64,000 nt of DNA, from the IMG/VR virus record IMGVR_UViG_2667527592_000002. The stretch is one strand, 5' to 3'. This stretch comes from a virus. Lineage: Duplodnaviria > Heunggongvirae > Uroviricota > Caudoviricetes. Both the position numbers and the translations under genes were made by a program. Below, piece after piece: positions 2,347 through 57,530 of this stretch (position 1 is its first letter; every line of letters starts with the position of its first letter). The notes beneath the pieces were generated by a model. The model was not told where the DNA came from. It ran no database searches and saw nothing but the letters and a program-made list of their open reading frames with translations.

Positions 2347-4264
2347 CAATCCTTTACGAATTAATATTCAGTCTACTTTTGCTGATACGATCCCCGGCTA
2401 TATGCCAAGTCGCTGGTCTTCAGAAGAATTAAGCGAAGATGACCTGATTTTTGAGGCGGCGACCTTAGAAGATATTGAGCTTGCCTATATGGGCAATGAA
2501 ATTCTGGTTGTGTCTGACGAAGCTATGTTTGAGTCCATAACTACAACCAGAATTCGGTTAGCTCAAACAATGCGAGCTTTCGTCCGTGCGCTGAATCGTG
2601 GCCTGAATGGTACGAATATTATGGCAGGGACTGATGAAGCTGGGACCGATGAAAATGGACGTAATTGTATTGGTGGTGCGATTATCGGTCGTGTACGTCG
2701 GGTAGCTAATATCCCTGTTTTGACCGCGCAGATACCGCTTACTGACGGGCAGAGTACAAGCATAATTTTCCACTCTCCAACAGCTGACGGGGCAAAAATA
2801 AAGAGTAACGACGAGCTTGTTGCATTTCAGTTTTTACTTAATAAGCGTAACGTAACTCACGTTGTCGCCCCGATTGGTGGGAGAGATGTTTCTTTAAGCC
2901 AGGTATGCCAGGCGCTATCTAATTTGATTGAGCGTAACAGCGAAAAATTTAAGAAAGCAAAAGAGCGCCAGGACAAAATGAAGGCAGATATTGAGAGTTA
3001 TCTCAATGAAGCAGATAAACTGGCAGAAGAACGGTCAATAATGATTGATCAGGTGGAAGTTGCGCAACGTGGGCTGACTGAAAAGCGTGCTGCTCTTACG
3101 GAGATGCAAAAAAAACTTGATGCCCAGAAAGCCATCAACGAGGAATTACAAGCAAAACGCGATAAATTGTTGTCTGCTAAAGGTGAAAAAACGAAAGAAC
3201 GAGCGTTTAGTGACCAGCTGCGACATGTAAAACATAATCTTGCCATTGACGGAAAAACAGTGCTGGATAATGGCGCTGAAGTTAATTATGTCACGTCCGG
3301 CAGTGATAATTTCGTTACGATAGTAGCACCTGAAGGTAAATTCAGTATTGATGCCAGTGCTGTCAAAGGAGGCAGTTTGGCAGATGCTGCAACCAAATTA
3401 CTTAAAGCCTACCGAGAGCATAACGCAGATAAATATAAAGTTGATGTGTTACCAGGCCAGCTGGAAGACTCCGAACTACCACAGACAGACCCCGAAACGA
3501 ACCCAGTATTACAACCAGAGAGCCAAGATGTAGGTAAATACCACTATGCACTTCAATCTCGCCCGGCTGGTGTTGGTGCTGTTCCGGATGGAAATAAAGC
3601 CGTGCTTGATCGTCCTGACCAGGCTGATCAGTATTACGAATATGCTCGTCACGGTATCATTACGTATGACCGTAAACTGACAGATGAAGAAGTCAGCCAG
3701 TACGAGTTGCTTTATCTTCCTGATGAAGATGAGCTGAAAGATTTTGCAGGCCAATTGGTTGCGTCCAGCATGTCGAAACATATTGATGGCTATGTGGACC
3801 TGTTTGGCAGTGACCTGAAAACATTCAAGGCGCAAGTGAAAATTCTTTTCCGCAAAGCGTTTCCAAACGTGGCGTATCCACTTAGTGATGGGGAGAACCT
3901 TTTCATTATGGACGTGAATAACGCCCTTCAAAATCATTCAAGCGAAGTAAAAACAGAGCATGTGGTTGAGCCAGAATCACAACCACAACCAGCACCAGAA
4001 CAGGAGTCGGAGCCAGAAGAAGCGGGTGAATCAGCAAGTGAAGCTGATCAGGAAGCAGATAAAGCGCTGGAGTACCTGAAATCCGTGCCGGAGCAGTTTA
4101 CATCCCGCGATCTGACGGTCATCAGTGCTGAACTTGATCATGTGCAGGAAGCAGCGAACGCTCTAATCAGTGCAGGTCGATACGACGAGAACGAAGCCAC
4201 TGTGGGTGCAGCAGTTGACTACCTGATCAATATTCTGGCTGAAATTCAGCAGGGAGGTGTTTAA
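2333..4264 (+). CDS. DarA-like large protein (positional and size analogy only)
   Basis: about 640 aa, central coiled coil, acidic C-terminal region; sits in lyd-dar-like operon; start 2333 or 2339 uncertain. Confidence 0.35.
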   Translation: MSMINNPLRINIQSTFADTIPGYMPSRWSSEELSEDDLIFEAATLEDIELAYMGNEILVVSDEAMFESITTTRIRLAQTMRAFVRALNRGLNGTNIMAGTDEAGTDENGRNCIGGAIIGRVRRVANIPVLTAQIPLTDGQSTSIIFHSPTADGAKIKSNDELVAFQFLLNKRNVTHVVAPIGGRDVSLSQVCQALSNLIERNSEKFKKAKERQDKMKADIESYLNEADKLAEERSIMIDQVEVAQRGLTEKRAALTEMQKKLDAQKAINEELQAKRDKLLSAKGEKTKERAFSDQLRHVKHNLAIDGKTVLDNGAEVNYVTSGSDNFVTIVAPEGKFSIDASAVKGGSLADAATKLLKAYREHNADKYKVDVLPGQLEDSELPQTDPETNPVLQPESQDVGKYHYALQSRPAGVGAVPDGNKAVLDRPDQADQYYEYARHGIITYDRKLTDEEVSQYELLYLPDEDELKDFAGQLVASSMSKHIDGYVDLFGSDLKTFKAQVKILFRKAFPNVAYPLSDGENLFIMDVNNALQNHSSEVKTEHVVEPESQPQPAPEQESEPEEAGESASEADQEADKALEYLKSVPEQFTSRDLTVISAELDHVQEAANALISAGRYDENEATVGAAVDYLINILAEIQQGGV

Positions 4265-4632
4265 TGACCATCTCTGTTTTAGACCGCCTGAAATTAGGTA
4301 AAGAGCTATCAGATCTAATGCAGGCGCAGAAAACTGCGCCAGTATTGCAACGCGTCACCATTGGTAAGCAGATTGTTGATGTGATGCTGAAATTGGGCCT
4401 GGGGACTGCCGTGCAACCGGCAGCGGAACCGCAACAACAGGCTGATCCTGTTGTAGATGAAGTCCCTAAGATAGTGACTGACTTCCTGGGCGGTGTGTTC
4501 ACAAAGTCCACACAAATGGAATTTATTGATGCGCTGCGTGGGATCTCAAACTATGTTGGCGAGTTCCTTACGTTGGAGCAGGCTAAAGAGCAGACCATAA
4601 GCTGGGTGAAAGCTAACGGTTATGCCGGGTAA
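4264..4632 (+). CDS. hypothetical protein (DdrA position)
   Basis: 122 aa, ATGA start/stop overlap with upstream gene. Confidence 0.3.
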   Translation: MTISVLDRLKLGKELSDLMQAQKTAPVLQRVTIGKQIVDVMLKLGLGTAVQPAAEPQQQADPVVDEVPKIVTDFLGGVFTKSTQMEFIDALRGISNYVGEFLTLEQAKEQTISWVKANGYAG

Positions 4633-4714
4633 TCAAAAGGGGCTGAAATGCCCCTTTCACTTATCTGTTCTCACATAAATCACACACTTTTTACACTCAC
4701 AGCTTTCTCTATAG

Positions 4715-6112
4715 TTGGAGTGTATTTTGAACAAATCAGTTACTTCTGCGCTTTCCGAGGCCGCAGATATTAACAGCGTCATTGCTCTGGTTTCTTCATT
4801 AGAGAGGAAAGAAACACGCCTGGGGCGAAGTAGCTACGTAGTCACCAGCAAAGGTGCAGAGGTAAAGACGGCTTTTAAGGTCGTTGATGCCAGCAGTCTG
4901 ATCATTTCGAACAACCTTGACGGTACGATTAACCCGGCCTTCCCGGAAGAACTCCAACCACGAGATCGTACCCGGCTATCCAGCAAACTCCAGGTTAACC
5001 GTATTGCCTCCAATTTACGCCCGGCACAATTAACGGATTCCGGTATGAGCAGCCACGGAGCGCCTATAGTTGGTCCGGACAACGTTGTTGAATCCGGCAA
5101 CGGAAGGAGTATGGGTATCTGGCGTGCCTATGAGCAAGGACAGGCGGATGAGTATCGCCAGTACCTGATCGACCATGCGAAAGAGTTTGGTCTGAATCCT
5201 GACGAAATTTCGCAAATGTCTATGCCCGTACTGGTGCGAGAAAGACTCACAGATGTAGACCGCGCTCAATTTGCCCGCGATTCAAACATTAGTGATCTGC
5301 AAGAGATGGCAGCAAGTGAAAAAGCGTATGCGGATGCGCAATTTCTCACTGAGAGTGTCATGGCGCTATTTAATCCTTCAGATGATGGAAATCTGCTGGC
5401 GCGGTCCAATGATGCGTTTATTCGTGCGTTTTTGCGCGAAATTGGCGATACAGCGACGGCAGGCTTGCTTACTGCCGATGGGCGTCCCACGAAACAGCTT
5501 ATCGATCGCATCCAGAATGCAATTTTTGCCAAAGCGTACAAGGATGAAAGGCTTGTTAGGCTGGTGTCGGAAGAGCCAGATCCGGAAATGCGTAATATCC
5601 TGACCGCATTAAATACGGCAGCCAGCGATTTTGCGCAAATGCAGTCGCTGTCTGGCGACGCTCACCATGACGCAGTAACAGGCTTAGTGGACGGTATAGA
5701 GCAGGTTAATGGCCTGGATACACAGGCGATAGCAGCACTCCAAGAAGCAATTAATCTTGTACGTGAAGCCAAAGACAACGGTCAGGCCGTTGAAGAAGTG
5801 ATCGCCCAAAGGGGGTTATTCGGCGACAGTACACCGGAAGCTGAGGCATTGGCGTTATTCATCGTAGCAAATAATCGCAGTGCGAAGCGTATGGGGGCAG
5901 CATTCAAAAAAATGGCGCAAAAAATCAACGACGAGCTGACTCATAAACAACAGGCATTGGGCGATATGTTCGGCGGTGGCGATGTTGATCTGCGTCGTAT
6001 TTTGTCTGCTGTATCTGATGAAATTGAGGGTGAATTTGGCGAAGGGAAAGGTCTGAACTTTGCTATGTTTGAAAATTCTACAGATCTAAATAATTGCCGT
6101 ACGGAAAACTAA
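4715..6112 (+). CDS. ParB/Srx-like N-terminal domain protein (DdrB position)
   Basis: motifs ...EELQPRDR... and ...VESGNGRSMGIWRA... resemble ParB box I/II (QPR and GxxRxxA); alternative start likely. Confidence 0.4.
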   Translation: MECILNKSVTSALSEAADINSVIALVSSLERKETRLGRSSYVVTSKGAEVKTAFKVVDASSLIISNNLDGTINPAFPEELQPRDRTRLSSKLQVNRIASNLRPAQLTDSGMSSHGAPIVGPDNVVESGNGRSMGIWRAYEQGQADEYRQYLIDHAKEFGLNPDEISQMSMPVLVRERLTDVDRAQFARDSNISDLQEMAASEKAYADAQFLTESVMALFNPSDDGNLLARSNDAFIRAFLREIGDTATAGLLTADGRPTKQLIDRIQNAIFAKAYKDERLVRLVSEEPDPEMRNILTALNTAASDFAQMQSLSGDAHHDAVTGLVDGIEQVNGLDTQAIAALQEAINLVREAKDNGQAVEEVIAQRGLFGDSTPEAEALALFIVANNRSAKRMGAAFKKMAQKINDELTHKQQALGDMFGGGDVDLRRILSAVSDEIEGEFGEGKGLNFAMFENSTDLNNCRTEN

Positions 6113-6176
6113 ACCAACCGCTGAAATCACATACTGATTATGCTGCCGCAAAACTGGAAACAATTTGCGGTGATTC

Positions 6177-10098: not shown

Positions 10099-10447
10099 TT
10101 AATTTGCTGTTTCTAAATCGGAATGTATGATCTGCATCATCGACTGAAGTCATCCATTGCTGAAATTTTTAGTTGATCTTCCATGTTTTCAGGCTTATAT
10201 TCATGCCGTCGTAGCAAATTCTGCGACCGGGTTTGACAGCCTGAATACTTACGCGGACAACCGCACATTTCCGATATTGCGGTATTTTTGTGTCCGTAAA
10301 ACCACGTTACGCCCGAATTATGGTGGGGCGTGATGGGGAGGCTTCGGCCTGCTGGTTTCGTAAGTGCCAGTCTGTCAACCCTGTCACGTCCTGCCACCTG
10401 TTTGACAGCGGGTCGCAGGTTGTTTATCAACTTACGAGGCCGTAACT

Positions 10448-12094: not shown

Positions 12095-12244
12095 ATTTTT
12101 CTCCCGGTCATGGGTTAATAAGTAGGCAAACTATGGGGAGTATGTGATTTTGACGGTAGTATCGTCCCCCTGAAAATAACATTCTCCATACCCTCTCAAC
12201 CGTACCGCATAGCGGAATTTTTACGGTTTAGAGGGGGAAATCCT

Positions 12245-46290: not shown

Positions 46291-47084
46291 TGTTTACCTC
46301 CTTTTCGAAGCTGTTCGGCGATATCTTCGAGAACGCCATCAGAGAATGAGCGGTCAAAATCGCCTTCCCGCGCATTAGCCATAAACTCAGTAGAGGTAAG
46401 AATCATCCGGGCAATATCCGCGGCGTTCTTCGCAGTATCATCAATAAAACCAGCTTCCCAAGCAGCCAGCATCCTGTTCGCCACAAAGTAAGCGCCCTCC
46501 TTGCGTGCTTCAGTCTTCACTTCATCCAGGAAAGTGTCGGTCGCAGGAGTGGTTTTTTGTGGTGATAGGGCGATACGAATTGTTTCAAGAGCTGGATCTA
46601 TTTCCACTGTTGGCACCTTGATAAAACCAAGCTGCACGCCATTCATAATGAACGTGCGGCGATCCTCACATATCGCCTTCAGTCTCGCATTCTCCGCAGC
46701 CAGCGCCGCGCGATTACCCTCCAGCTCTGCAATGCGCTGTTTTGCGGCATCAAGTTCAATCGATAATTTTTCCAACTGCTCTTTATGCTTCTTGTATTCC
46801 TGATATGCGTGCCAAGACTGACCTTTGCGCACACTATCAGTAATATCAGTAATCTGTTCTGGTGTTAGCGTGGTCAGTGGCTGTGCTGGGAAAATCAGCA
46901 CTTTCCCGGAATCCCAATCAAAACCAGCGTGAATTGACTGAACCTCAACTGAGGGTGTTGAACCAATGCTGCCAGGCGAATGAACAACGATCGTTACATC
47001 CATATCGCGACGATGGCTGTGGTTATTGGACAAAATACGATTCACCAACTCAGAAAATTTGGAGAATTTCATGCGGAGCCTCAA
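46287..47084 (-). CDS. coiled-coil protein, paralogue of 47488..47991
   Basis: shared C-terminal block ...FL.E...EAR.EG......R.LAA...GFI......R..DV.RMIL...E..AN... Confidence 0.35.
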   Translation of the reverse strand: MRLRMKFSKFSELVNRILSNNHSHRRDMDVTIVVHSPGSIGSTPSVEVQSIHAGFDWDSGKVLIFPAQPLTTLTPEQITDITDSVRKGQSWHAYQEYKKHKEQLEKLSIELDAAKQRIAELEGNRAALAAENARLKAICEDRRTFIMNGVQLGFIKVPTVEIDPALETIRIALSPQKTTPATDTFLDEVKTEARKEGAYFVANRMLAAWEAGFIDDTAKNAADIARMILTSTEFMANAREGDFDRSFSDGVLEDIAEQLRKGGKQ

Positions 47085-47491
47085 TATGCAAAATAGACAG
47101 TTGCCACACCGTTATAGTGATCAAACGATACGGCGTTTACTTCATAGCTGGCAGGAAGCTTCGAGCCGAGAACGTATCCGGGCCACGTTTTCCATGGAAT
47201 TTCTCTACTCTCACTATCCCCATATACCGTACATCCAAGCGAACCTACAGCCTCGTCAGAACGTTTGCCGCATGTTATGAAACCTATATTTTTCTTGCTG
47301 GCCTTAATGGCGATTGGGTGAACACTGGCTGATGCATTGGCAGCACGCTGTGACTGTTGGTTTGCGATATTCGCAGAGTTCGCAGCAGCTACAGCAGCCG
47401 TGGTCGCGGCGGTAGATGCCACAATAACTGCTGAAGCCTGCGCCTGTTGGGTAATGGTCAGCAATGCCGCCACAAAAATCATCTTCTTCAC
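47081..47491 (-). CDS. secreted protein with signal peptide
   Basis: MKKMIFVAALLTITQQAQA signal-like N-terminus. Confidence 0.35.
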   Translation of the reverse strand: MKKMIFVAALLTITQQAQASAVIVASTAATTAAVAAANSANIANQQSQRAANASASVHPIAIKASKKNIGFITCGKRSDEAVGSLGCTVYGDSESREIPWKTWPGYVLGSKLPASYEVNAVSFDHYNGVATVYFAY

Positions 47492-47991
47492 TTGTCAGCT
47501 CCTTTGCGAATCTGTTCCGCCCATTCTTCAAGGGATTTCTCCGCATATTCACCGGACAGGCCATCAATCGGGTGCGATTCATTAGCCAACTCTTCTTTCG
47601 CTGACAGAATCATGCGCGTAACGTCGAAAACTTCACGTAAAGACTTATTGATAAATCCGTGGTTGAAAGCAGCAGCAAGACGGCTTGCGGTATAGTTAAT
47701 CCCCTCGTTGCGAGCCTCCGCACGAATTTCAGCCAGGAAAGCATCGGTGACTGGCATATTTCCTGTTGCCTTCATGGCCTCCAAAATAACCAGAACGCCA
47801 TCTCTCCCTACCACCTCGCAGATAACCTCGGTGTTGTCGCCAACAACATCGCAGAATGCCTGAACTGCTTTACGAGCAAGTGCATTCTCCGCCGCTAGCG
47901 CAGCACACGCTTTCTCAAGTCGGGAAATTTCCGTTACATACTCAGCGTTACGCTCTGCCAGTTGCGCGGGCGTTAAACCTTCAGACTTCAT
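47488..47991 (-). CDS. coiled-coil protein, paralogue of 46287..47084
   Basis: 167 aa; shared C-terminal domain. Confidence 0.35.
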   Translation of the reverse strand: MKSEGLTPAQLAERNAEYVTEISRLEKACAALAAENALARKAVQAFCDVVGDNTEVICEVVGRDGVLVILEAMKATGNMPVTDAFLAEIRAEARNEGINYTASRLAAAFNHGFINKSLREVFDVTRMILSAKEELANESHPIDGLSGEYAEKSLEEWAEQIRKGADK

Positions 47992-48298
47992 ACACTCTCC
48001 TTTCGAAATAAACGTACTGATTAATCATGCCCAGGGGCATTTCGAGTTTTTCCGCGATCTCACGGCGGGGAACGCCACACTGATGAAGCTGCCGCGCCAG
48101 CTCTATATCGCTCTGCCGGTATTTGGCTGACTGGTGAAAGTCACCTTTCAGAATCATGCTGATCCCAAGCTCTCGCGCTTTAGTCCTGACGGCATCACCG
48201 GTACGACCGATCAGCTTCCCAATACTCTCGACCGTCATAGTTCCGGCGCACTGGCGGAGTATCATGACTTCTGCCCTTCCCCATCCCCGCCAGCTCAC
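47981..48298 (-). CDS. putative DNA-binding protein
   Basis: 105 aa; HTH-like ...TVESIGKLIGRTGDAVRTKAREL... Confidence 0.3.
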   Translation of the reverse strand: MSWRGWGRAEVMILRQCAGTMTVESIGKLIGRTGDAVRTKARELGISMILKGDFHQSAKYRQSDIELARQLHQCGVPRREIAEKLEMPLGMINQYVYFERRVYEV

Positions 48299-50255: not shown

Positions 50256-50353
50256 AAATACTGACTGTTGCGCCCTGGCATTATCGTGGGGTATATTTCT
50301 ACGGCACCTTAGAAAAACGGGTGCCGGGATTGGAACCCCGGATAATGCAAAAG

Positions 50354-50376
50354 GCGACACAGACGCCGAAAGCGTC
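50354..50376 (+). terminator. rho-independent terminator
   Basis: gacgccgaaagcgtc + ttttttt. Confidence 0.6.
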
Positions 50377-50568
50377 TTTTTTTGTGTCATGCCATCGCAC
50401 AGCCATACGTAGCGTTTAGCTCAGAGATCAATGGTAGTGCTGGCTGGGCTGCCGAAAGGCAGGCCGGTTCCCTTTTGCGCCGGTAGTTCCAACCCAGTCA
50501 GTGCTACCGCCATTGAGATTGGAACCTCACGCGGTAGCTCCTTAAATTAGCAAAAGGAGGCTGCCAAT

Positions 50569-50784
50569 ATGGCTACTATCCCTACCCCAACTCATTCTGA
50601 ATTTATCTGGCGTTTCTATTCCTGCCAAAAACACCTGTATATCTGCGTAATGGCTGCTACCGAAGCAGAAGCTCGTTCATACCTTCCTGAAGAACCCTGC
50701 ATTTTTGCCGCACGCTTCACTCTTGATGCGATGGAGATCCTCAATTACTGGAATCTGCCGATGAACTGCGTGGAGGTGCACTGA
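50569..50784 (+). CDS. Icd-like small protein (copy 2)
   Basis: ...EFIWRFYSCQKH...VMAATEAEAR...; paralogue of 10448..10672. Confidence 0.45.
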   Translation: MATIPTPTHSEFIWRFYSCQKHLYICVMAATEAEARSYLPEEPCIFAARFTLDAMEILNYWNLPMNCVEVH

Positions 50785-51725
50785 TGAATCTGCCCATCTC
50801 TCGCAAAGCGACAATGACCAGTATTGAGATCGCGAAACTGGTGGGAAGTCGTCACTCTGATGTTAAACGCAGCATCGAAAGACTTGTTGCTAAAGGTGTT
50901 ATCCAACATACGCCATTGGCTACAGTTGAGAATAATCAATCACTTAGCCCTAATAAATACACAAAAGCCTATGTCTTCGAAGGCGAACAAGGCAAACGAG
51001 ACAGTATCATTGTCGTCGCACAGCTCTCTCCGGAATTCACCGCCCGGCTGGTGGACCGCTGGCGCGAACTGGAGAATGCCAGGGGACCGTTAAAATCAAA
51101 AGCCGAAATCCTGGCTGAAATGGCGCAAATGCATCTTGAGCATGAACGCCGGATCAACGCCGTAAATGCCCAGGTAGCCGAGGTATCAGCACAAGTATCG
51201 ATGGTTGCTGAAACACTCGAGCAAATAAAGAAAGGCAATATTCCGGAAGGCTACATTGGCTACCGCCAGCTGGCGGCGAAATGCGGCCTGACTGAAGCCA
51301 AATGCCGAAACCTGGTCAACGCTTACCGGATTCCCACCGATACGCATGAGTTTTTAACTCCAGATGGTTTGCTTGCGCGACGCTCCATTGTGGCCCTGGC
51401 CCCCTTCCGGAAAGCCTTTAAGCAGGTGATGTCGGAGGCAGAACCACGCAATAAACGCTGGTATCATCCAAAGATGGGGATGTTTCAGGCAATCCACCAT
51501 CCTGTGCCTGAAAGCCCAAAGGATAATCTGTCACTACATACCGCCAGAGAGAAGATCAGGACTGGATACGCAACAGTGTGTCGTCGTTCTTCCTGGCCTG
51601 AAGGTGTATGGGTATGGCCCGAAGGTGGATCACGAAAGCACTGGCGCACCATCCGGGACGGAAAAATCCATGCTATTGATTTAGCTCCAAAGGATGTTAT
51701 TGCTATGGACTGGATTGTTAGTTAA
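50784..51725 (+). CDS. Rha/Ant-family antirepressor (copy 2) with DUF2829-like C-terminal extension
   Basis: MTSIEIAKLVGSRHSDVKRSIERL; C-terminal ...KIRTGYATVCRRSSWPEGVWVWP...IHAIDLAPKDVIAMDWIVS aligns with standalone 11376..11576. Confidence 0.7.
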   Translation: MNLPISRKATMTSIEIAKLVGSRHSDVKRSIERLVAKGVIQHTPLATVENNQSLSPNKYTKAYVFEGEQGKRDSIIVVAQLSPEFTARLVDRWRELENARGPLKSKAEILAEMAQMHLEHERRINAVNAQVAEVSAQVSMVAETLEQIKKGNIPEGYIGYRQLAAKCGLTEAKCRNLVNAYRIPTDTHEFLTPDGLLARRSIVALAPFRKAFKQVMSEAEPRNKRWYHPKMGMFQAIHHPVPESPKDNLSLHTAREKIRTGYATVCRRSSWPEGVWVWPEGGSRKHWRTIRDGKIHAIDLAPKDVIAMDWIVS

Positions 51726-51784
51726 ATGCTGCATCCCCGGCGACTCCGGGGATTTAACTGCCAAATAATCGGATTATCCGCACG

Positions 51785-52096
51785 ATGAAAAAAATAGATT
51801 TCACTTATTCTGCCGCCACAATCCAGCGACGTTTCAGTCTCATAAGGGAAGTGGAACTATCAAAAAACTTGTATCAAATTCTACTGGATGAAGAGTTTTC
51901 ACTGATGGTTATAGCAGAAAAATTAGCTATGCCGAACGACCGGCACAAGGTCATAGCCAGCCTCGATCTGGTGACAAACAGATACTGGGAGAAAGAGGAA
52001 CTACATGAGGCGGGAGTAATTCGTGACCTGATGGAGAATTCCGTTCCCCGCCGCTATCGTGCAGGGAACGGCATCTCCGTGGTTAAAGGTGTTTAA
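51785..52096 (+). CDS. hypothetical protein
   Basis: 103 aa ORF. Confidence 0.3.
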   Translation: MKKIDFTYSAATIQRRFSLIREVELSKNLYQILLDEEFSLMVIAEKLAMPNDRHKVIASLDLVTNRYWEKEELHEAGVIRDLMENSVPRRYRAGNGISVVKGV

Positions 52097-52485
52097 AGCT
52101 CACCTGCGCGCTGTTTTTCAAGCACAGATTTAACATTTGGCGCTTTCCCTTTAAAAGAATGGAAAGTGCCACATTTTTCTGTTTTAACCTCGCGCAGAGC
52201 TTCGCCATCGGCGTTCTGCCATTGATGGGATAATGTCATATCACCGCGAGAAGGAACATCCAGCGAGTACAGCGTGTAAGTTCCCCCCATCTCCGCATAC
52301 TCCTGGAACACATAGCTCATTACGTCAGATTCAGTTTTTCGGTGTGCGTTATCAACCTTATTCCCATTCAGAAATATGGCATCTGGATAGATTTTTATAT
52401 CAAACCGACCGCACTTAACTTGTAAATTTCCGGCGCTCGCGATCAAAGGGAAAGACGCCAGTAAAGCAATAGCCAATCTTTTCAA
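52093..52485 (-). CDS. secreted / periplasmic protein
   Basis: signal-like MKRLAIALLASFPLIASA. Confidence 0.35.
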   Translation of the reverse strand: MKRLAIALLASFPLIASAGNLQVKCGRFDIKIYPDAIFLNGNKVDNAHRKTESDVMSYVFQEYAEMGGTYTLYSLDVPSRGDMTLSHQWQNADGEALREVKTEKCGTFHSFKGKAPNVKSVLEKQRAGEL

Positions 52486-52505
52486 TTCTGCCTCCGCTGC
52501 GTAAC

Positions 52506-53129
52506 TTATTGCCCGTATTTTTTACACCATTGCTCTGCCATTTGTTTGGCTAAAGGCCCGGCTACTGCACTGTATTCTGCTGTTTTACTTTGCACACATG
52601 AAGCAGATGGTTTTTTATTTCGCTGCTCGGTTAGTTTGCGCTCATAAGCCATCATGCTATCGAACCCGGCAATATCACTTTGGCGAAGCATTCCCTTTTT
52701 AACCAAAAATTGCTGCCCCTCTGGCACCAACGCAAGCATAAAAAGTGGTTGCAATAACTCACCTAATCCTTGCTGGCGATACACTTCGAATTGCTGCCAT
52801 CCCTGACTTAATCTGGAAAGAGTATCTTTGGTTGAATAACCTGTTTTTGTTATAGCTTTGTCCGTCAGATATGCTGTATATGCAAAAACGCAAAAGTCAG
52901 TTTTACCAATAAACTGAGTTCCAACAGGCCGTAATGGAATGCCCTCCCTCTTGCAAAAGTCCATAATTGCCGCTTGTGAATGATCCCCACCAGCGTTATT
53001 CATAACCTGCTGCCCTGCCCTGAATTGTGCAGGTAACGCAGTTGCATTGGCAGTATTAACAGATACGCATCCCAACATAGCCGCGAGCGCGGCCCCTAAA
53101 ACCCTTAACTTCACTACACCATCCTTCAT
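52506..53129 (-). CDS. secreted / periplasmic protein (possible superinfection-exclusion type; speculative)
   Basis: N-terminal signal-like region, 207 aa; position near immI-like module. Confidence 0.35.
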   Translation of the reverse strand: MKDGVVKLRVLGAALAAMLGCVSVNTANATALPAQFRAGQQVMNNAGGDHSQAAIMDFCKREGIPLRPVGTQFIGKTDFCVFAYTAYLTDKAITKTGYSTKDTLSRLSQGWQQFEVYRQQGLGELLQPLFMLALVPEGQQFLVKKGMLRQSDIAGFDSMMAYERKLTEQRNKKPSASCVQSKTAEYSAVAGPLAKQMAEQWCKKYGQ

Positions 53130-53345
53130 GTAAACAAAATGAAGTTTTATGTTATAAAAACAATTAACTACATCAACATGATTTAGGCCAAATTTCGGTC
53201 AAAAAATAAAATCCACAAAAAGTGGTTGACACTATTTTGGAAATCACAAACTACACATAATCCATCGCGCTAACGGCTCCCGTTGAAGGTTCTTTTGACG
53301 ATTAACTTTCAGCCGAAGCGCGGTAGGGAGTCATAACGCCAAAGC

Positions 53346-53370
53346 AGGCCGCCATGTGCGGCCTTTTTTT
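53346..53370 (+). terminator. hairpin + T-run (terminator or attenuator) just upstream of 53398 gene
   Basis: aggccgc-catgt-gcggcct + tttttt. Confidence 0.5.
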
Positions 53371-53397
53371 GTATCCGTCATCCGTGAAGGAAGGACA

Positions 53398-54051
53398 ATG
53401 GAAAAGATCGCAATATTCAGCCTGACCACCAGCAAGCCTCAAATGCTCACTGCAATACTGAAAGACGGTGCTCTCATTATTAACGAAGTAAAACCCCTTC
53501 CCGCGTCAGCATTGGAGCAAAAGCAAAAAATTCCTCCAGCTATAGCAGCCCTGCGGAAAAGCAAATTTAAGGTACTGGTAGACGAAATTACGCCAACGAT
53601 CTCCGCTGGCACCGGAGCAAGCCAGGTGACTCTCAAGACCCGTCATGCCGATGGCAGAGCAGCAATCATCGTCGGGATGGAAAGATACAGAGAGTTAAAA
53701 CTCCAGAAGCTATTATCCCTGCCGCAAAATAACAAAGGTGCTTTCGAAATCCCCGACTCTATCGTTGATACCGAATACAACGGTAACGGAGAAGAAGTCT
53801 ACAGGGTGAACTGGCAGGATATCAGGCCGGAGCATATTCTGATGATCCTGTGTTGCTACGCGACCGTATACCAAAACGTTGCCAGTGCAGATTACGTAGA
53901 GCAGATGACCGGGACAGTCGAGAAAGAGCAAAAAACAAGCATACTCGCTTCGTTCCTTTCCATTATTGGGCATGAAAAAGTTAAAGCAGGCACCTCCCAG
54001 CCAAAGTCACTGGCTGGGAAAGAAGTTGATGAAGATACCGTGATACTTTGA
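53398..54051 (+). CDS. hypothetical protein
   Basis: ATG at 53398 preceded by GAAGGAAGG; ORF track starts earlier inside the hairpin. Confidence 0.35.
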   Translation: MEKIAIFSLTTSKPQMLTAILKDGALIINEVKPLPASALEQKQKIPPAIAALRKSKFKVLVDEITPTISAGTGASQVTLKTRHADGRAAIIVGMERYRELKLQKLLSLPQNNKGAFEIPDSIVDTEYNGNGEEVYRVNWQDIRPEHILMILCCYATVYQNVASADYVEQMTGTVEKEQKTSILASFLSIIGHEKVKAGTSQPKSLAGKEVDEDTVIL

Positions 54052-57460: not shown

Positions 57461-57530
57461 TATGAATTGAAATCACAATCTCCAGACAATGCACCCTCGA
57501 TACCTGATAAATCGACCTTTGAGGATGCTT

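Follow-up and report, generated by a model that had tools for sequence, protein, structure and literature searches.

Two predicted exported proteins occupy a sim-type cassette slot in a D6-like phage-plasmid

What do two small adjacent genes, lying beside an immunity module on the minus strand of a phage-plasmid, contribute to the element that carries them? The question is raised by a locus in the IMG/VR virus record IMGVR_UViG_2667527592_000002 (Caudoviricetes), analysed here as one stretch of 64,000 nucleotides (the window). An original prediction, made from the letters alone, proposed that two adjacent open reading frames (ORFs) at 52093-53129 encode secreted proteins and may be functional analogues of the superimmunity (sim) genes of phage P1. 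Both ORFs are where it placed them, on the minus strand: w207 (52506-53129; 207 aa from an ATG at 53129; PHROG 12786) and w130 (52093-52485; 130 aa from a TTG at 52485; PHROG 13864), the latter encoding a predicted secreted, beta-rich protein. Comparative sequence evidence strongly supports the view that the pair forms an accessory two-gene operon in a sim-type slot of a D6-like phage-plasmid. Whether it is also a periplasmic two-protein superinfection-exclusion module, non-homologous to Sim, is a matter of analogy, and we give this idea somewhat less than an even chance.

The two genes have the same orientation and are separated by only 20 nt (52486-52505, minus strand, from the w207 stop to the w130 start), within which a Shine-Dalgarno (SD) sequence, GGAGG (52491-52495), lies 5 nt upstream of the w130 TTG codon; on these grounds we read them as a predicted operon. 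The w207 ATG at 53129 is not preceded by an SD sequence. An alternative GTG start at 53114, which would yield a protein of 202 aa, has AAGGA 7 nt upstream (53122-53126) and is therefore more likely to be the true start; the same GTG is used by a 202-aa cluster at NCBI (P0001). Each protein matches a PHROG profile hidden Markov model (HMM) from its first residue to its last (w207, E 2.5e-134, residues 1-207 of 207; w130, E 2.9e-90, residues 1-130 of 130), and both PHROGs are listed as 'unknown function'.

Are the products exported, as their signal-like N-termini had suggested? We judged the N-termini by hand rules for Sec export and cleavage by signal peptidase I (SPase I), namely a basic n-region, an uncharged h-region of 8-15 residues and small residues at -3 and -1. 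Both proteins conform: the n-region is basic, the h-region hydrophobic and uncharged, and the c-region of the A-x-A type. The predicted w207 signal peptide (residues 1-29; 53043-53129, minus strand) reads MKDGVVKLRVLGAALAAMLGCVSVNTANA and is followed by TALPA, its c-region KLRVLGAALAAMLGCVSVNTANA ending at a putative SPase I site between ANA and T. That of w130 (residues 1-18; 52432-52485, minus strand) reads MKRLAIALLASFPLIASA, is followed by GNLQ and is conserved in distant homologues. As a chance baseline, a permissive rule-based scan was run over the 122 window ORFs of at least 90 aa; it flagged 14, of which only the pair and an ORF at 47081-47491 were convincing by eye, the rest being weak.

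The homologues tell the same story. The signal peptide is kept in every full-length member of either family, down to 25-30% identity, the cleavage site is conserved in both families, and the mature end of the w207 family shows a conserved x-(L/M)-P after the A-x-A site. The mature proteins carry conserved cysteine pairs (C59/C80 and C178/C202 in w207; C25/C105 in w130, equivalent to C24/C104 in 129-residue numbering). In natural fusions of the two proteins, described below, the w130-like domain has lost its own signal peptide and begins no more than a few residues from the predicted cleavage site. We conclude that w207 and w130 are almost certainly both exported to the periplasm, and this part of the original prediction held up well. 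A lipoprotein assignment was considered for w207 and rejected, the lipobox-like Cys21 (AMLG-C21) not being conserved: the relatives P0002, P0003 and P0008 have LGG instead of LGC and retain A-x-A followed by xLP. Because Cys21 is Gly or missing in relatives and the A-x-A site with x-(L/M)-P is kept, w207 is read as a probable SPase I substrate. The rule-based check found no lipobox in w130.

What kind of place does the operon occupy? Over 51700-53400, megablast matched 131 E. coli, Salmonella and Shigella plasmids, each about 90 kb in size (36 of the 131 covering at least 80% of the query), and matched phage D6 only at the right-hand end. These matches, together with the D6 gene order of the homologous stretch (annotated in D6 as ref, icd-like, ant, pmgF-like, orf80, orf79, mat and genes 26 and 25), place the window, by sequence, in a D6-like, P1-related phage-plasmid. 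In blastn comparisons, homology between window and D6 extends over 54100-53072 at 97% identity and over 52055-51000 at 92%; on the right it breaks off within the w207 signal-peptide codons, on the left within the 3′-terminal part of the pmgF-like gene. Because it breaks at both edges, the intervening 1,016 bp (52056-53071) can be seen as a replaceable cassette that stands in place of D6 orf80 and orf79. D6 orf79 is annotated 'putative superimmunity accessory function protein, similar to P1 simB' and is 52% identical to P1 SimB over 86 aa; the cassette shares its upstream region and the first ~17 codons with this simB-like gene locus.

Other elements suggest how the two states are related. At the same locus, E. 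coli pF719-4 carries mat, a w207 allele and an orf79-like SimB fusion, an arrangement that appears to be an older state of the locus. D6 (locus record L001, 5995-6037) lacks 588 bp that are present in pF719-4 (L010, 3225-3812) and make up most of the w207-like gene; D6 is, on this comparison, a 588-bp deletion derivative of the w207-then-SimB-fusion arrangement. The 21-residue N-terminal extension annotated on D6 orf79 (VKLMVLGTALAAKMVRYGVNE) is a remnant of w207 signal-peptide codons, and the true orf79 start is probably an internal Met.

A third arrangement is found in Citrobacter freundii pRHBSTW-00697_3 (L006), a P1-like phage-plasmid in which icd/KilA is directly preceded by genes for three secreted proteins: one of 123 aa and unknown kind, a member of the w207 family (hhalign probability 95.8%, E 8e-9) and, starting 17 nt after the latter, a full-length SimB homologue (42% identity to SimB, E 4e-31). 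The gene for the 123-aa protein (4432-4803) heads the operon; its product has no Pfam match and no clear similarity to SimC, and is another uncharacterised component of sim-type loci. The w207 family is thus repeatedly found in putative operons with SimB-type genes, in two other phage-plasmid lineages, and w130 and SimB-domain proteins look like alternative second genes after w207. The SimB-domain fusions of D6 (orf79) and pF719-4 occupy the same slot as the pair and have the same promoter region, whereas w130 has no sequence relationship to either SimB or the C-terminal domain of orf79.

How far does the likeness to P1 go? In P1, simC, simB and simA (46786-48070) lie directly upstream of and divergent from c4, and all three products have signal-peptide-like N-termini, so the premise that P1 carries periplasmic sim genes near immI is sound. 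To our knowledge, the Sim phenotype has been traced to SimC alone among the P1 proteins, and we know of no resolved mechanism for it. The pair resembles this operon in encoding small proteins with cleavable-looking signal peptides, predicted by rule to be periplasmic as in the case of SimC, beside an immI (c4-icd-ant) module. The second such module of the window (50427-51725, plus strand) does exist, as had been proposed: it consists of a C4 antisense RNA (50427-50514, plus strand; Rfam C4, 76.7 bits), an icd-like ORF (50569-50784, plus strand) and the Rha-type antirepressor gene ant/Rha (50784-51725, plus strand; Pfam Phage_pRha), the homologues of both genes being annotated accordingly in D6. 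The description of the pair as adjoining icd-ant copy 2 is correct but loose, as a pmgF-like gene (51785-52096, plus strand; 89% identity to the D6 pmgF-like protein over 88 aa) intervenes and puts the module one gene away. The orientation also differs: P1 sim is upstream of and divergent from c4, whereas the pair is downstream of the second immI operon and convergent with it, w130 meeting the pmgF-like gene end to end. P1 has three genes and this locus two, with no sequence similarity between them. A further likeness is that the slot of the pair is variable, as the eight hypervariable regions listed for P1-like elements include sim (PMC9603915), and the P1 sim genes are non-essential (PMC10695390).

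The shared kind of locus and export route, and the comparable size of a fused w207-w130 protein (277 aa) and SimC (264 aa), raise the alternative that w207 and w130 are true but extremely diverged homologues of the Sim proteins. Sequence comparison speaks clearly on this point. BLASTP of w207 and w130 against SimA, SimB and SimC gave no similarity (E above 3 for SimC), and hhalign gave SimC a probability of 0.4% against both family profiles, values at chance level. No sim homologue was found anywhere in the window by tblastn, SimC included, and BFVD gave no match. SimB matched neither protein, whereas its genuine homologues in these elements, which can lie next to w207-family genes, are easily recognised: identities are 42-52%, and those in pRHBSTW-00697_3, pF719-4 and D6 score E 4e-31 to 1e-25. 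We regard extreme divergence as very improbable and take w207 and w130, as far as these comparisons can tell, not to be members of the Sim families.

To what, then, are they related? Neither protein has a significant match in Pfam or NCBIfam or a match in PDB sequence profile searches, and tblastn of both against 50,697 phage records returned nothing. In an index of 5.8 billion proteins we found 10 homologue clusters for w207, all 'hypothetical', and 11 for w130; a profile HMM search of 1.84 billion representatives with w207 gave 22 matches, none annotated, and a profile word-index search with w130 gave 34 clusters, all hypothetical; no entry of either family bears an informative name. Both families therefore appear tiny and uncharacterised. 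Where a source organism is given it is always one of the Enterobacteriaceae, and both families are almost confined to phage-plasmid-sized replicons of that group. The complete cassette occurs in 38 of 5,426 complete E. coli genomes, with almost all matches on plasmids.

Some members lie in other settings. On an Enterobacter kobei phage-plasmid (L009, 3929-5159), a lone w130-like secreted protein is encoded directly upstream of an Hcp-family gene of the type VI secretion system (T6SS), with DUF1493 and STM2901-family genes also downstream. A w207-family gene is present at 2950-3555 on the 168-kb IncF conjugative plasmid NZ_OZ039654.1 (L012), amid phage-plasmid debris near sslE. A decayed pair is found on pLH214-1 (L004, 5031-5926), beside RepB, its w207-like gene without a signal peptide and its w130-like gene frameshifted; the plasmid is conjugative, was deposited as Vibrio parahaemolyticus and contains remnants of icd and repL as well.

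Could the ORFs be fortuitous, or decayed and without function? They are annotated nowhere, and some copies are frameshifted or truncated (P0010, P0017 and P0021, and that in L004). Such a reading is nonetheless scarcely credible. By the Nei-Gojobori method, the proportion of nonsynonymous differences (pN) is well below that of synonymous differences (pS), at 0.20 vs. 0.66 for w207 and 0.02 vs. 0.22 for w130, and for this reason both are taken to be real genes evolving under apparent purifying selection. Length, signal peptides and cysteines are conserved to ~30% identity, and the SD sequences are good, the AlphaFold2 (AF2) models confident and the fused architecture conserved. Of the two genes, w207 evolves fastest and w130 is much more conserved: in some plasmids, w207 alleles of 57-67% identity lie beside a w130 that is 97% identical, and the lowest nucleotide identity of the locus (51-69%) falls in the mature N-terminal two-thirds of w207. 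Variability of this kind is typical of exclusion or immunity genes.

Do the two proteins work together? In those plasmid records for which both genes are among the matches listed, they are adjacent and in the same order, the decayed L004 copy included. At the same locus, Enterobacter hormaechei p60214CZ_1 encodes a single secreted protein of 277 aa in which a w207-like domain (40% identity, without the C-terminal Cys hairpin) is fused to a w130-like domain (69% identity) that starts where mature w130 does. In another fusion cluster, strongly diverged (P0026; 281 aa; identities of 30% to w207 and 41% to w130), the two domains are joined through a Gly/Ser/Ala-rich linker. Because the fusion is kept in two diverged lineages, w207 and w130 probably act jointly, in one compartment and as a complex.

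Structural models give a first sketch of the partners. The AF2 model of w207 (pLDDT 83) is all-alpha, with nine helices and a disordered stretch at residues 1-27. That of w130 looks like a generic small beta-barrel or meander, whose nearest structural analogues, ToxS and VtrC among them, are periplasmic beta-barrels that bind ligands or partners. Proteins of the ToxS/VtrC type form obligate heterodimers with a partner domain, and w130 would resemble them both in its modelled fold and in appearing to work with a partner, w207; the difference is that its list of structural matches is made up mostly of generic beta-sheet proteins.

We propose that, after export, mature w207 and w130 would act together in the periplasm as a complex, as the gene fusions suggest, w207 forming its all-alpha subunit and w130 its small beta-barrel subunit. 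Made by the resident prophage-plasmid, this complex might, to judge from its context, act like P1 Sim: it would intercept related incoming phage after adsorption, as their DNA or ejection proteins cross the periplasm, and so keep the resident element from being superinfected and displaced. Specificity may be set by the variable N-terminal two-thirds of w207, with w130 and SimB-domain proteins as alternative partners. Small envelope-located phage proteins that block superinfection at the receptor or when DNA enters are known, among them T4 Sp and Imm and the prophage exclusion proteins of the Cor/Llp type. Their general mechanism is the one proposed here, and they show no homology to w207 or w130. 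Llp and Cor are lipoproteins of the outer membrane and Imm resides in the inner membrane, whereas w207 and w130 are both predicted to be soluble, the lipobox-like Cys of w207 not being conserved. A more specific version of the proposal is that w207/w130 represents an unrecognised two-subunit periplasmic exclusion system lacking detectable relatives in fold, in which w207, as the allele-diverse specificity core of sim-type loci in D6-like phage-plasmids, pairs with w130 or SimB-domain proteins and recognises a phage component crossing the periplasm. This we consider rather unlikely as it stands; if true, it would offer a way into the mechanism of Sim-type exclusion, long unexplained. One candidate for such a target is the tape-measure protein Sit, reported to be the other divergent region between cassette types (PMC6799933); sit is not in the window.

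The evidence on export and distribution also bears on a different explanation, namely that the pair is a periplasmic accessory ('moron') module that alters the host envelope without excluding phage and merely uses the same swappable slot as simB-type cargo genes. Such a module might shield the cell from colicins, T6SS or lysozyme-type effectors, or serve in stress or colonisation. Any periplasmic cargo could be exported and exchanged as a cassette in this way, and the occurrence of lone w130-like genes in further accessory regions, in one case next to an Hcp gene, of a w207 variant beside sslE on an IncF plasmid, and of ToxS and VtrC as the nearest analogues of w130 all sit comfortably with such a role. 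However, the near-confinement of the families to phage-plasmid-sized replicons of Enterobacteriaceae suggests a role specific to phage-plasmids, w207-family genes repeatedly adjoin SimB homologues and immI modules, and neither protein matches a known immunity or inhibitor family. We take this explanation seriously, while leaning against it.

When would the pair be expressed, and could it serve the phage's own lytic cycle, in lysis timing (antiholin- or spanin-like) or in conditioning the envelope for release? The genes lie between the antirepressor and morphogenesis-type genes (pmgF-like, mat, baseplate genes), as might suit such a role, and periplasmic lysis regulators exist in other phages, e.g. 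T4 RI. A P1-type late promoter was sought upstream of w207, and none was convincing. A different motif, AAATCACA[AT]ACT with a -10-like element, has four copies in the window, a number reached in 0 of 100 shuffles: 6123-6146 (plus), 12128-12151 (minus), 53240-53263 (plus) and 57469-57492 (plus). Each copy lies just upstream of a gene start (portal, a CHAP-domain gene, mat and an ORF at 57489, respectively), and the motif is probably the Lpa-dependent late-promoter box of D6-type elements, distinct from that of P1. It is not present upstream of w207, and for this reason the pair is read as not belonging to the late genes. The best sigma-70-like candidate lies at 53149-53176 (minus strand; TTGATG, 16 nt, TAACAT; position weight matrix (PWM) scan), in a region 97% identical to D6. 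A search of the window for the P1 C1 operator consensus, allowing up to 3 mismatches, found no site. Further points argue against a lytic role: the slot readily takes up unrelated genes instead, D6 is viable despite having lost w207, neither protein resembles holin, antiholin or spanin families, and the P1 sim genes at the analogous locus are dispensable (PMC10695390). We judge a lytic function improbable.

We return to the possibility that the pair is a Sim-like exclusion module. The suggestion that the two proteins are functional analogues of P1 sim stands as far as export, the slot of the D6 simB-like gene and the w207-SimB operons are concerned, but finds no echo in SimA, SimB or SimC homology or in a structural match; it therefore rests on genomic context and not on homology or experiment. 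Several observations weigh against it. Besides the lack of similarity to the Sim proteins in BLASTP and profile comparisons, the link to sim is itself second-hand, P1 SimB being annotated only as 'putative accessory function'. No family in PADLOC-DB was matched at E up to 1 by w207, w130, the fusion protein or D6 orf79. The structures are silent on mechanism, the w207 model having no fold neighbour in PDB or BFVD. The w130 model is confident in only one of five AF2 runs. Positive selection, which would be a direct sign of an arms race, could not be demonstrated, as dS is saturated and omega stays below 1 (0.15-0.35). Solitary w130-like genes lie beside unrelated genes, for RepB, a protein kinase or Hcp. 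Lastly, the promoter is weakly supported: the PWM candidate scores at about the 90th percentile of window tiles, and a strict sigma-70 consensus scan found no promoter for the pair.

The question matters in that P1/D6-type phage-plasmids, which carry resistance genes, are often found in E. coli and Salmonella, and the factors that decide whether an element enters a cell already holding a phage-plasmid are poorly understood. The sim-type slot emerges as a modular array of exported proteins whose components are shuffled (w207-w130, w207-SimB), fused or deleted, and the pair offers concrete, clonable candidates for exclusion and its specificity. If the pair has some other periplasmic job, it would still be widespread, uncharacterised cargo.

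A few features of the neighbourhood deserve mention. The window contains two C4 antisense RNAs (10316-10401 and 50427-50514; Rfam), and its two immI modules differ in construction: an isrK-like Hfq-binding RNA (50304-50382, plus strand; 62.5 bits) lies directly upstream of the second C4 RNA, and the first copy carries a c4-a1b1 target element instead (10195-10247, plus strand). On the other side of the pair, mat (maturation control; 53398-54051, plus strand), so annotated in D6 and the plasmids, is divergent from w207. Upstream of the mat start codon at 53398, and after the late-promoter-like motif, comes a structured stretch of 110 nt (53266-53375, plus strand; minimum free energy -39.1 kcal/mol, z -1.9) that ends in a strong terminator hairpin (53346-53364 followed by T7) and has no Rfam match. 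It could be an attenuator/leader, or a small RNA, upstream of mat. Rfam gave no match over the whole of 51700-53450.

At the other end of the operon, the stop codons of the pmgF-like gene (plus) and w130 (minus) overlap by 4 nt (52093-52096), and the minus-strand operon has a single terminator-like hairpin (51948-51927), within the coding region of the pmgF-like gene. Given this overlap and the position of the hairpin, the convergent transcripts of the two genes should themselves overlap. The ORF at 47081-47491 (minus strand, 136 aa), the only other convincing hit of the signal-peptide scan, has a very good signal peptide, MKKMIFVAALLTITQQAQA followed by S, and no Pfam match; it adjoins a gene with a weak scaffold-protein match.

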